Shown in pieces: positions 57,822-62,853 of a stretch of 64,000 nt of DNA. This DNA is from Candidatus Aenigmatarchaeota archaeon. GTDB lineage: Archaea; Aenigmatarchaeota; Aenigmatarchaeia; GW2011-AR5. The notes under the pieces were generated by a model, which worked only from the letters and a program-made list of their open reading frames with translations, was not told the DNA's origin and made no database searches. A program made the position numbers and the translations under genes. The DNA lies in the NCBI GenBank assembly GCA_043799385.1, contig JAZDNV010000001.1, positions 1-64,000 of the forward strand. Reading direction: 5' to 3'. Position 1 is the first letter of the stretch; each line of letters opens with the position of its first letter.

Positions 57822-59030
57822 ATGGAAGCAATAGCCAGTAATATTTTTTCCCAACATATAAACAAACCCTCGTTGTTTAAGAATAAAAATATATTGAACT
57901 CTACGTTCATACCGCCAAAAATATCATTCAGAGACGTTGAGATTGAACAGGCGGTTTCGGTACTTTCTCCGGCCCTGAGGAACTATAAGCCAAACAACAT
58001 ATTCATCTATGGCACGTGCGGAACTGGCAAGACCGTGGTTGTCAAATACGTCCTTAACCAACTCGAGGCTTTAGGCAAGAATAACATCAAAACAGTTTAC
58101 GTCAACTGCAAAATGAAGCGCGTTGCAGATACAGAATACCGCTTGCTGGCGTGTCTGCTGCGCGAACTCGGTGTTACAGTGCCGGATACAGGCCTGCCTA
58201 CAGACGTTCTTTACAGAAGATTTTTTGAGAAGGTTGACTCAAAACAGCATATAGTCCTAATCGTGCTTGATGAAATTGATACGCTATTCAACAAAGTAGG
58301 CGACGAATTCCTTTACAACCTGATAAGGATAAACAACGAGCTGAAAAACGCGCACATAAGCATAGTTGGGATAACCAACAACCTTTCTTTCCGGGAGGGC
58401 CTGGATGTAAGGATACGCTCTTCTTTGGGCGAAGAGGAAATTTTATTCAAGCCCTACAACGCCATACAACTGAAAAACATACTTTCAGAAAGAATAGCTG
58501 AAGGGTTTTGCGAGAACGTCGTTTCCGAGGATGTCTTGGGCAGATGTGCCGCATTGGCTGCGCAGGAGCATGGCGATGCAAGGCGTGCACTTGATATGTT
58601 AAGAACAGCAGGCGAGCTTGCAGAGCGCATGGGCGATACAGAAATAACTGATACGCATGTTGATTTGGCGGAGAAGAAGATTGACCTTGACCGTGTCGTC
58701 GAGACGATAAAGGCCCAGCCGAAACAGTCACAGGCGGTTCTGTGCGCGATAATGGCGTTGGAAAAACAAAGCAATGGCAAATGGAGCGATTCGCGGTTGC
58801 TCACAGGCAATGTTTTCTTGAAATATAAGGAGATAGTCAAGAACAACGGTTTGCGCGCCTTGACACAAAGAAGGATAAGCGACCTGATAGGTGAATTAGA
58901 TATGCTCGGCGTAATCACTGCGAAGGTTATTTCCAAGGGAAGATACGGCAGAACGAGGGAGATATCGTTGGCAATGGCGGATGAATTAAAGGACAAGGTA
59001 AAGGCGACCCTCTGGGAAAGATTTTTATGA
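57822..59030 (+). CDS. cdc6: Orc1/Cdc6 replication initiator
   Basis: YGTCGTGKT, VLDEID, GDARRA, C-terminal wHTH SKGRYGRTR; start ATG 57822 after GGTGGTG. Confidence 0.96.
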   Translation: MEAIASNIFSQHINKPSLFKNKNILNSTFIPPKISFRDVEIEQAVSVLSPALRNYKPNNIFIYGTCGTGKTVVVKYVLNQLEALGKNNIKTVYVNCKMKRVADTEYRLLACLLRELGVTVPDTGLPTDVLYRRFFEKVDSKQHIVLIVLDEIDTLFNKVGDEFLYNLIRINNELKNAHISIVGITNNLSFREGLDVRIRSSLGEEEILFKPYNAIQLKNILSERIAEGFCENVVSEDVLGRCAALAAQEHGDARRALDMLRTAGELAERMGDTEITDTHVDLAEKKIDLDRVVETIKAQPKQSQAVLCAIMALEKQSNGKWSDSRLLTGNVFLKYKEIVKNNGLRALTQRRISDLIGELDMLGVITAKVISKGRYGRTREISLAMADELKDKVKATLWERFL

Positions 59031-60243: not shown

Positions 60244-62853
60244 ATGTTATTTCAATTATTGGATGTTGACTATTTTTTGAACGGAAACAAACCGGTCGTA
60301 AGATTATACGGCAAGACAGAAAACGACAACTCAATATGCGTATTCTGCGAGAATTTCCAGCCTTATTTCTACATAAAAGAAAAAACCGACGTGCCCGGTG
60401 CGATAAAGATAGAAGAGGTCGAGAAATTCCTGCCTCTAGGTTATCATGAAAAACCAATAAAGCTACAGAAAGTAACTCTGACCAATCCGCAGGACGTCGG
60501 TGTAGTGAGAGAGCAGCTGGCCGCAGACGGCGTAGAGAGCTATGAAGCAGATATATTGTTCAAATACAGGTTCATGATCGACCATGGTCTGCACGGCATG
60601 GACTGGATTGAATTCGAAGGAAGAAAAACGCACACGAATCTGGTTAACATACCTGCATACGTTGCAAGCAGCATAAAGAGAGTCGAGAGCTATTCGAACG
60701 CGCCGCTGAAATACATGTCGTTTGATATTGAATGCCTGCCGAGTGACGTTAAGCGGTCAATAGACGCAAAGATGGACCCTATAATAATGATAGCGCTGAC
60801 TTTCTACCCGGATTACAGGAACAAAAAAAACCTCGTTCTTGTCGCAAAGCCGGTGAATGAAAACGATGCTAAAGGATTCAGAAGCGAGAAAGAGATGCTT
60901 GAGGAATTCCTGAACATAATAAGGGTGTACGACCCGGACATAATCACGGGTTATAACATAAATTCTTTTGATCTGCCGTACCTGCTTGAGAGGTTAAAAC
61001 AAAACCATCTGCCAGCGAATTTCGGCCGCTGCAACGACAAGTACGTCTACTCAAAAAAATTCGGCATGACAGAAGAATGCACAATCAACGGAAGAATAGT
61101 AGTTGACCCATACCAACTGTTGAAAAGAGACCCGTGGCTCAAATTCGTACGTTACGACCTTAATACGATTGCAAAGGAGTTGCTGGGCGAAGCGAAATTG
61201 GACGTTGAGTACAGCGAAATGCCAGAGCTTTGGAACGGCACACGGGACGAACTAAGCAGGTTCATCGAATATGCGAGAAAAGATGCAGATCTATCAATAC
61301 GCTTAGTTCTTGAGAGAAGGATGCTTGACAAATTCATAGAGCTTGCGAAGGTATCCGGATTGCTTTTACAGGATACGTTCGGCGGCCAATCCACGAGGGT
61401 AGAAACGATGATTCTGCACGAATTCAAGAAAAGGAATTTCGTGATGCCGTCTAAGCCAACTTCTTCTGAACTTACAAAACGATTGAAAGAACGGGAGAAG
61501 AAAGGATTGAAGGGCGCGACAGTTTTAGAACCTAATAAAGGATTTTATTCTGACTATGTGCTCGTACTGGATTTCAAAAGCCTGTACCCGAACATAATCA
61601 GGACGTATTGCATTTCGCCTGACTGCCTACTGCTTGATGGCAGCGATGGTATTAAATCACCGTCAGGCGCGGTTTTTGCGAAACGTGAAGTTCGCGAGGG
61701 CGTTTTCCCGTTTCTTCTAACAAAGCTGCTTGAAGCAAGGGGAATTGCAAAGAAGGCGATGAAAACCGTAGGCAAAGAAGAGAAAAAGATACTCAATGCA
61801 AAACAATTGGCGTTAAAGGACATGGCCAACTCGTTCTACGGCTATACAGGCTACATACGTGCAAGGCTGTATATGATAGACGTGGCTAATGCAGTGACGA
61901 GTTATGGCCGTGAAAATATCGAAAGGACGAAAAAACTGATAGAGGATACCTTTAAAGTGAATGTCATCTACGGCGACACTGATTCCATATTCCTGAAGGT
62001 GAGTGTAAAGAGCATAGACGAGGCGAATGAGCTAGGCAGTAAAATATCAAAATTCGTGACCGACAACCTTCCAGGCTACCTTGAGTTGGAATTCGATAAG
62101 ATATACCGCTCGTTCCTCATACTGACAAAGAAGAGATATGCCGGTTGGAAGTTTGACTATTCAGATGGAAAATGGGTTGACAGCATAGACATGCGCGGCA
62201 TCGAGACAGTCAGACGCGATTGGTGCTCGCTGGTTACAGAAACAATGAACGAGATACTCAACATAATCCTGAAAGAGGGCGATGTACAGAAGGCGCTTAA
62301 TCGCATGCGCGATGTCGTAGAAAAGATAAAGAGAAATGAAATACCAATGGAAAAACTTACTGTTGTGAAGGAAATAACGAAACATGTGGATTCATATGAA
62401 GGGATACTGCCGCACATCGAGCTGGCAAAAAAGCTCACTAACAGGAACCCGCACGACGTACCAAAAGTTGGCGACAGGATTGGTTATATTATAATAAAAG
62501 GCAATCAGCTGCTGTCCAAGAGGGCAGAAGACCCGAAATATGCGGAAAAAAACAGATTACAGATAGATTCTGATTACTATCTGTCGTCGCAGCTATTTCC
62601 GCCGATCGAAAGAATATTGAACGCCGTCGGGATAACGAGGAGCGAGATGCTTGGCAACGGAAAACAGATGAACATATTCGACATGGTCAACGGGAAAAAA
62701 AGCTCAAGCAATGAGTTAGCAGGTTGGGAAGGATTTGTCTGCAAAAAATGCAACAAATCCTACAGAAGGATGCCGCTGCAAGGTCTTTGCGAGTGCGGCG
62801 GCGAACTTTTGCTCAGCTACCACGGCTCTGTTGGCAACAAGATAAAGATTTAG
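60244..62853 (+). CDS. polB: Family B DNA polymerase with PIP-like box and C-terminal DP2-like Zn finger
   Basis: Exo FDIE, [11 protein letters not shown], YARKD; Pol [49 protein letters not shown]. Confidence 0.96.
   Translation: [869 protein letters not shown]

Follow-up and report, generated by a model that had tools for sequence, protein, structure and literature searches.

Which DNA polymerase is encoded beside the predicted replication origin of an Aenigmatarchaeota chromosome, and with what partner would it work? The question is raised by a locus in contig JAZDNV010000001.1 (assembly GCA_043799385.1, positions 1 to 64,000; this whole 64-kb stretch is referred to as the window). Three genes follow there, on the forward strand, a cluster of repeats resembling the origin recognition box (ORB; 57583-57797): the initiator gene orc1/cdc6 (57822-59030), a gene for a protein similar to DP1, the small subunit of the archaeal polymerase PolD (59027-60109), and a gene for a family-B DNA polymerase (PolB; 60244-62853). 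An earlier note on this DNA had read the order as oriC, cdc6, DP1-like gene and PolB; all of these elements were found at, or within a few bases of, the places it gave them, the oriC being a predicted one.

We believe, with a probability of about 0.85, that the locus specifies a two-subunit PolB holoenzyme in which a zinc module of DP2 origin (Zn-III) docks on a non-catalytic DP1. The locus would encode a chromosomal replicase beside the predicted origin. Its catalytic subunit would be a proofreading family-B polymerase, the last ~40 residues of which are a Zn-III inherited from DP2, the other subunit of PolD; the old small subunit DP1 would have been kept as a non-catalytic B-subunit with a disabled phosphoesterase site. 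Our own grounds are the homologies of the parts, the loss of a nuclease motif, the conservation and synteny across the phylum, and the presence of DP2 in the same slot of other lineages. The absence of DP2 from the phylum and the binding of DP1 to PolB are taken from papers.

Background

The pairing of a PolB with an inactive DP1 is real and already known; descriptions and tests of it exist for this phylum. According to Kazlauskas et al. 2020 (PMC7544198), some group-B6 PolBs, mostly of Aenigmarchaeota, bear C-terminal metal-binding motifs; the “B6-aenigma1” PolB has one such motif, nearest to DP2 Zn-III and probably gained from DP2 via recombination. In the same paper, DP2 is missing from most sequenced Aenigmarchaeota, and the zinc-tailed PolBs are accompanied by an inactive “Aenigma” clade of DP1. 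The pairing is said there to mirror the proposed origin of the eukaryotic PolB and B-subunit; the same parallel, drawn in the earlier note, is supported by our data but was thus already in print. A 2025 paper (PMC12680538) finds DP2 absent and DP1 retained in Aenigmatarchaeota. By AlphaFold3 and yeast two-hybrid, it reports that DP1 binds the fusion of PolB with DP2's C-terminal domain (CTD) in both lineages that have it (Aenigmatarchaeota and Baldrarchaeia), and does not interact with PolBs devoid of the DP2-derived tail. It also assigns the two-motif “B6-aenigma2” sequences to Baldrarchaeia contamination.

The novelty that the earlier note allowed for an origin-linked pairing with a degenerate DP1 is accordingly reduced: the pairing dates from 2020 (PMC7544198), and what remains is the origin-linked synteny, which was not found in the texts searched. 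The main text of PMC7544198 and the part of its supplement consulted do not mention linkage to cdc6 or to an origin, nor gene adjacency (the single sentence of the main text that names Cdc6 is unrelated). In the main text of PMC12680538, the passages on gene order concern primase and RFC rather than cdc6-DP1-PolB; its supplements may bear on the point. Literature searches returned no other paper on an origin locus composed of cdc6, a DP1-like gene and PolB. A phylum-wide, origin-linked array with PolB in the slot of DP2 may therefore be new, as a modest addition.

Results

The polymerase (869 aa, no intein) matches Pfam DNA_pol_B (1.2e-113) and DNA_pol_B_exo1 (4.8e-41), both nearly full-length. 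As had been claimed, it carries all exonuclease and polymerase motifs, and each was located once: ExoI (FDIECL), ExoII, ExoIII, motif A, motif B, YGDTDS and KKRY. Among PDB matches, the closest solved relative of the core is the catalytic subunit of human Pol delta (5.1e-111), and the PolBs of Thermococcales are near (9e-107). Many Aenigmatarchaeota PolBs of the same family are 1300-1390 aa long and contain intein domains (Pfam PF14890, PF14528), which the window PolB does not; these are the proteins P0130, P0142, P0143, P0170, P0177, P0187 and others, and the loci L019, L022, L026, L031 and L052.

The polymerase ends in a Cys4 zinc module, FVCKKC...GSV (residues 831-863, cysteines C833, C836, C849 and C851, with a YRRMPL loop; 62734-62832, forward strand). 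The earlier note had placed such a tail from about 62731; the module is present and starts one codon later. Residues 831-861 match the NCBIfam models of DP2 (E 4.4e-6 to 4.2e-5) at profile positions 1042-1073 of 1125. When 39 PolB tails were compared with three Woesearchaeota DP2 by hhalign, the probability was 96.5 and the E-value 8.5e-10 (columns 1070-1104). In a search of PDB sequences with the tail profile, the top three matches are DP2 chains, namely 6knb_B (1127-1159; 8.6e-8), 6hms_B and 6t8h_B (both 1.7e-6); they are followed by adenylate-kinase lids and other zinc ribbons at E 4.5e-4 or weaker. The proposed identity of the tail with the last zinc module of DP2 is borne out by these three results; the lack of any profile match to the DP2 zinc finger, which would have told against it, was not what the searches gave. 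As judged from the profiles, the PolB tail is homologous to DP2 Zn-III, and the likeness is beyond chance.

The tail alignment comprises the last 90 residues of the window PolB and of PolBs from 38 loci, out of 42 loci with a complete C-terminus; left out were L006 and L018 (on the other strand, L018 also with Ns) and L013 and L015 (duplicates of L008 and L014). Four cysteines and one glycine are invariant in all 39 tails, and the loop K-x-[YF]-R-R-x-P-L is nearly so (R 32/39, R 34/39, P 38/39, L 37/39). At least four cysteines lie within the last 50 residues in 42/42 complete PolB C-termini, and CxxC...CxC is found within the last 70 residues of all 120 PolB cluster representatives; the window PolB has a single CxxC...CxC only. 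Searched against 1.84 billion representative proteins, the tail profile gave 113 hits at E<=1e-3. Thirty of the longer hits, chosen mostly for matching the zinc part only, were checked and proved to be 20 DP2, 8 PolB and 2 unrelated proteins. With one Woesearchaeota DP2 as a single query, tblastn gave no high-scoring segment pair (HSP) in the window at E<=1e-3, yet PolB tails were matched in nine related loci; some of these HSPs, in L012 and L044, extend to DP2 residue 1039.

Among the hits of the tail profile, three short, divergent PolBs of 779-796 aa (P0286, P0289, P0307) end in a DP2-like CxxC..[YH]RRPPL.G.C.CGG and may be a second lineage with the same tail.

The linker between the thumb and the zinc module holds the sequence QMNIFDMV (62665-62688, forward strand), which follows the pattern Q-x-x-h-x-[DE]-h-h and resembles the PCNA-interacting peptide (PIP). 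The earlier note had reported QMNIFDM as PIP-like; it is indeed present at 62665, and the pattern is conserved across the 39 tails (Q 37/39, hydrophobic 39/39, D/E 37/39). The aromatic pair of the canonical PIP box is missing. In the AlphaFold2 (AF2) model of the 90-residue tail, this linker has low confidence (predicted local distance difference test, pLDDT, 54-63), the module reaches 78-88, and the overall value is 70.2.

The second protein of the proposed pair (360 aa, forward strand) consists of a helical domain at its N-terminus, an OB fold and a phosphoesterase (PDE) domain of reduced length, according to PDB profiles, AF2 and Foldseek. It matches the NCBIfam models of the PolD small subunit at E 1e-35 but far under their cut-offs, and Pfam Metallophos_2 (calcineurin-like phosphoesterase) at 7.5e-12. 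The profile of a 22-member family matches the PolD DP1 structures in the PDB profile search (E ~5e-26). The AF2 model (pLDDT 89.4, predicted template-modelling score 0.81) shows the helical domain, an OB barrel and a phosphoesterase sandwich. Its best Foldseek match is DP1 of P. abyssi (E 7e-25, template-modelling score 0.72), and the next are human and yeast B-subunits of Pol epsilon, delta, alpha and zeta (E 5e-18 to 1e-9; for those of epsilon, delta and alpha, 1e-15 to 5e-18). Relatives in the databases are mostly named “metallophosphoesterase family protein”; we suggest that the 360-aa gene should be annotated as a non-catalytic DP1/B-subunit homologue.

The active exonuclease site of DP1, with its five PDE motifs, is not present in the window protein. 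In an alignment with four genuine DP1s (~505 aa, loci L054-L057, three of Woesearchaeota and one of Methanosarcinales), motifs I (DxH), II (GDxxD), IV (H) and V (GHxH) are retained, and motif III, GNHD in genuine DP1, is deleted, leaving the remnant TPGCGAEY (59750-59773, forward strand; TPGC--GAEY in the alignment); two more stretches of the phosphoesterase domain are deleted as well. The window protein has 6 of the 8 key residues and is deprived of the N and H of motif III. None of the 120 family proteins has all eight (range 0-7, with seven in 40 proteins), the motif III His occurs in none of them, and neither does GNH[DE] at any position. The lost His corresponds by alignment to the position mutated in PDB 6hmf, which bears the description “H451 proof-reading deficient variant”. 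In the divergent relatives L050-L053, the phosphoesterase site is likewise degenerate.

The DP1 had been called “decaying”, a word that does not suit it: motif III is lost in 120/120 family proteins, yet the gene is conserved. There are 33 invariant columns in 22 DP1-like sequences, and many of them, lying outside the catalytic motifs, are common to genuine DP1 as well: ED in an OB strand, KR, D..PD and NYK..T.VN. In each of the 53 loci with this gene, tblastn gives one uninterrupted HSP. Because the HSP is unbroken, the columns are invariant and the DP1 fold is predicted with confidence, we consider the protein non-catalytic but maintained: to judge by its sequence, it is a conserved subunit and no pseudogene, and it is under purifying selection. 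A maximum-likelihood tree of 53 DP1-like proteins and four genuine DP1s bears on the phylogeny that had been asked for. The window protein does nest among those of Aenigmatarchaeota; the group itself is unresolved, long branches lead to L050-L053, and the root is by midpoint only, for which reasons the tree was set aside as a guide to the donor or to the order of events.

The synteny was followed in 57 related loci, of which 53 have the Aenigma-type DP1-like gene and four a full-size DP1. Among the 53, cdc6 lies directly upstream on the same strand in 48, PolB directly downstream on the same strand in 43, and both in 39; a synteny survey, which the earlier note had called for, thus finds the full trio in most loci. 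Ten loci are without a directly downstream PolB. Six of these are a contig end (L007), loci with an adjacent but inverted PolB (L006, L018), a rearrangement (L038) and loci where PolB is displaced from the DP1-like gene by 1.7 kb (L023) or 6.2 kb (L042); the other four are considered in the Discussion. The cdc6 gene is missing in three loci: L047, which is at a contig start, L050 and L053. Two bins hold two loci of the cdc6-DP1like-PolB type each (L009/L014 and L006/L044); the DP1-like protein of L014 is identical to that of L015 from a different assembly, which suggests mixed bins rather than true duplication.

In three Woesearchaeota loci and one Methanosarcinales locus, cdc6 is followed by a full-size DP1 and by DP2, with the Pfam N-terminal (PolC_DP2_N), central and catalytic domains. 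DP2 holds the third position in these four loci; therefore, the PolB of Aenigmatarchaeota occupies the slot of DP2, as the earlier note had supposed. The linkage oriC-cdc6-DP1 is known in Thermococcales, Halobacteriales and Methanosarcinales, and P. abyssi has DP2 there too (Berthon et al. 2008, PMC2643942). The window shares with these islands the ORB-type repeats, cdc6, a DP1 homologue and the common strand, and differs in that its third gene encodes PolB instead of DP2.

The pairwise distances among the three genes correlate (r 0.81-0.87 in 38 loci), which is expected for any co-inherited genes and is used here only against frequent independent transfer; the mean p-distance is the largest for the DP1-like protein (0.53, against 0.44 for PolB and 0.39 for cdc6). 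These data bear on the reading of the zinc-tailed PolB as an accessory or mobile-element polymerase beside which the DP1-like gene is a relic with no partner. A mobile genetic element is the most likely source of the B6 PolB according to PMC7544198, and inteins are present in many relatives. We nevertheless think this reading very unlikely: throughout the phylum, PolB keeps its place between cdc6/DP1-like and housekeeping genes, the divergence of the three genes is correlated, the DP1-like protein shows strong conservation although its active site is dead, and binding between DP1 and PolB has been published (PMC12680538).

The spacer upstream of orc1/cdc6 (57569-57821, 250 bp) is AT-rich and holds the ORB-like cluster. 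The inverted repeats follow the motif CTCYANNNGAAA, which has five matches in the window, four of them within 57583-57797 in alternating orientation (57583-57594 minus, 57686-57697 plus, 57759-57770 minus, 57786-57797 plus). In the related loci, there are 38 matches in the 20.2 kb upstream of cdc6 and 16 in the other 676 kb, i.e., over the 400 bp upstream of cdc6 the density of the motif is ~80-fold that of the remaining sequence (49 loci). At least one upstream match occurs in 29/49 loci, and no exact match in 20/49. The region has the arrangement of an archaeal oriC, with ORB-type repeats flanking an AT-rich stretch beside orc1/cdc6. We call it a predicted replication origin, with its activity likewise predicted, because the pattern was derived from the 57583-57797 region itself, 20/49 loci are without a match, and, what counts against an origin here, the GC skew (2-kb resolution) does not change sign at this place.

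The initiator gene matches NCBIfam TIGR02928 (E 8e-118) and Pfam Cdc6_C, Cdc6_lid and AAA_22 (forward strand). Its longest open reading frame (ORF) is 57705-59030 with a GTG start; the ATG at 57822 is the likelier start by sequence comparison, since alignments with relatives begin only at residue ~35-47 of the long ORF and the part upstream overlaps the ORB-like repeats. The ATG of the DP1-like gene overlaps the cdc6 stop by 4 nt, and a spacer of 134 bp separates the DP1-like and PolB genes.

Discussion

The proposed enzyme can be outlined as follows. Raia et al. 2019 (PMC6355029) showed that in PolD the KxRRxP-bearing loop of Zn-III is docked in the OB/PDE groove of DP1, and that DP1 has a nanomolar affinity for a Zn-III peptide of 20 residues. 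From this analogy we infer the geometry of docking and the binding of the two window proteins to each other: the basic YRRxPL loop of PolB would enter the DP1-like protein at its OB/phosphoesterase groove, in the manner of Zn-III in PolD. The resulting two-subunit PolB holoenzyme would be built like the eukaryotic Pol alpha, delta and epsilon, and both synthesis and proofreading would come from PolB. We presume that the DP1-like protein serves as an adaptor, the conserved N-terminal domain of which probably tethers the enzyme to other parts of the replisome; the N-terminal domains of DP1 and Dpb2 bind GINS or primase. For the PIP-like motif in the flexible linker, the probable partner is PCNA.

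Several properties of the tail and of the material weigh against this proposal. The tail is the zinc module alone: PolB ends ~6 residues past “GSV”, where DP2 runs on for ~55 residues of helices, and the helical bundle that also contacts DP1 in PolD is not there. The Aenigmatarchaeota tail has been called a “degenerate” DP2CTD, shorter and differently predicted (PMC12680538). In the PDB search with the tail profile, no eukaryotic polymerase CTD appeared at E<=10, so that of the profile comparison outlined in the earlier note the match to DP2 holds and that to eukaryotic CTDs does not; a direct sequence link of the tail to the CTD of Pol alpha or epsilon was dropped for this reason. A Foldseek search with the tail model gave nothing at E<=0.001 (the top five are P. 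abyssi DP2 chains at E 0.1-0.75, and chains of Pol epsilon and Pol alpha are at E 3-6); the module is too small for a structural verdict, and this search was set aside. Finally, the Zn-III of PolD is part of clamp-1 on the nascent duplex and makes contact with the DNA minor groove as well (PMC6355029); the module may thus do more than dock.

The last point could be taken further, with a zinc module that serves mainly to handle DNA or PCNA and a DP1-like protein that acts separately, e.g., with Orc1/Cdc6 at the origin. A link between Cdc6 and DP1 at oriC was proposed by Berthon et al. (PMC2643942), and the overlap of the cdc6 and DP1-like genes agrees with it. Considering that the conserved RRxPL loop is the element that docks on DP1 in PolD (PMC6355029), and that the two-hybrid interaction was observed only for PolBs with the DP2-derived tail (PMC12680538), we find such a division of roles very improbable; docking and contact with DNA are not exclusive in any case.

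Two further points against the two-subunit PolB holoenzyme concern its genomic context. The view is of 64 kb of the genome, on a contig that has 166,249 bases according to the protein records, and a DP2 or a second DP1 may be encoded elsewhere. In L021, L035, L036 and L049 (4/53), cdc6 and the DP1-like gene are followed by unrelated genes; judging from these contigs, the PolB must lie elsewhere in the genome or be missing from the bins. Both points would suit a canonical PolD that persists, with the DP1-like protein paired to a full DP2 from another place and the PolB tail incidental, the more so as cdc6-DP1 linkage with no neighbouring DP2 is common in Euryarchaeota (PMC2643942). However, the proofreading His of motif III is missing in 120/120 family members, which is at odds with the role of DP1 in PolD. 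PolC_DP2 domains are absent by Pfam from the 78 window ORFs scanned (the trio and 75 others), and no DP2 core was found by Pfam and by tblastn with Woesearchaeota DP2 in the window or in the 53 related loci (~0.7 Mb). With DP2 also reported absent from the phylum (PMC7544198, PMC12680538), a persisting PolD seems to us hardly credible. The genes found downstream in the four loci are MtrA-like, FAD oxidoreductase, nitroreductase, RNase HII and SecDF genes.

Compared with described systems, the window is another member of the B6-aenigma1 (PolB-DP2CTD with DP1) type and shows no essential difference from it: the phylum, the single Cys4 nearest to DP2 Zn-III, the inactive DP1 and the lack of DP2 in the window and related loci are all shared. 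The Baldrarchaeia PolB3-DP2CTD (formerly “B6-aenigma2”, PMC12680538) likewise joins PolB to a DP2-derived tail, with DP2 lost and DP1 kept; its tail is full-length, with two Cys modules and helices, whereas that of the window is a short one-module form. Three hits of the tail profile (P0281, P0313, P0288) are PolBs of 988-1340 aa with a longer tail of two Cys modules and helices, resembling the Baldrarchaeia form.

Canonical PolD (DP1-DP2 of P. abyssi and T. kodakarensis; 6hms, 6t8h, 6knb) shares with the window the OB and PDE fold of DP1, the Zn-III with a basic RRxP loop and the genomic position downstream of oriC-cdc6. It differs in the double-psi-barrel core of DP2, where the window has PolB, and in the helical part of the DP2 CTD, absent from the window tail; unlike the genuine DP1 of Woesearchaeota and Methanosarcinales, the DP1-like protein has a dead nuclease site and a shortened PDE domain (~360 vs ~505 aa). 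With the eukaryotic Pol alpha, delta and epsilon, the window shares a PolB that ends in a metal-binding tail and a DP1 homologue that is inactivated. The eukaryotic CTDs have two modules (CysA, CysB) and a helical bundle, where the window tail has one Cys4 and no bundle; also unlike eukaryotes, the window has a single B-subunit gene in an operon-like array at the origin. Eukaryotic replicases consist of a PolB core, a DP2-type CTD and an inactivated DP1 as B-subunit, and Aenigmatarchaeota show that the same combination can arise within archaea.

How the combination arose can be proposed tentatively. A PolB core would have entered, by recombination, the DP2 gene that stood in an ancestral cdc6-DP1-DP2 array near the origin, and left the last ~35-40 DP2 codons (Zn-III) as a docking tail, DP1 being inherited vertically and losing its nuclease afterwards. 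We give this scenario, taken as a whole, slightly less than an even chance. It is allowed by the full trio in 39/53 loci together with the cdc6-DP1-DP2 arrays of Woesearchaeota and Methanosarcinales, and the origin-linked array, as gene order, favours replacement in place over the import of a ready-made enzyme. If true, the B-subunit architecture would stem from one fusion event at the origin, and not from a ready-made zinc-tailed PolB brought by a mobile element. Replacement in place is not stated in the main texts of PMC7544198 and PMC12680538 or in the part of the PMC7544198 supplement consulted, and was not found in literature searches. The position in the DP2 slot, quantified across the phylum, constrains how the replacement happened; the array of cdc6, DP1-like gene and PolB also suggests co-regulation of initiator and replicase.

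Other observations on the window

To judge by its genes, the window is an Aenigmatarchaeota chromosome. The named relatives of both proteins come from metagenome-assembled genomes of Candidatus Aenigmarchaeota/Aenigmatarchaeota (48-72% identity for the DP1-like protein, 54-66% for the C-terminal third of PolB). In 49 of the 57 related genome loci, many of them with the same labels, identity to the DP1-like protein is 39-60%. The rest of the window is ordinary chromosome, with genes for ribosomal proteins, FtsZ, tRNA synthetases, RPA, RadA, Hjc and carbamoyl-phosphate synthase. A scan for sigma-70 promoters and terminators was disregarded, the model being inapplicable to archaea.

A tRNA at 16207-16321 (minus strand, 115 nt) is found by Rfam (RF00005, 53.7 bits) and has ~40 nt inserted in its anticodon loop, which probably represent an archaeal intron; unlike Rfam, ARAGORN reports zero tRNAs in the window. 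The alanyl-tRNA synthetase ORF (24862-26616, minus strand) encodes 584 aa with the catalytic and SAD domains only and may be truncated or split. Archaeal alanyl-tRNA synthetases are usually longer. Just upstream of it lies an ORF of 146 aa with no Pfam match (26670-27110, minus strand).

Positions 1-15300 contain ~20 consecutive ORFs with no Pfam match (E<=1e-5) around a T2SSE-type secretion/pilus ATPase (5071-7296) and Alba (7623-7913). A gene for an RPA-like OB-fold protein (37536-38495, forward strand) overlaps the start of RadA (38488-39486), which suggests a small operon for recombination/replication; not far from this pair are a Toprim gene of DnaG-like type (45454-46626) and Hjc (47848-48222). 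Two genes of the sulfatase family lie in tandem at 51866-54767 (forward strand), and their longest ORFs overlap by 143 nt.

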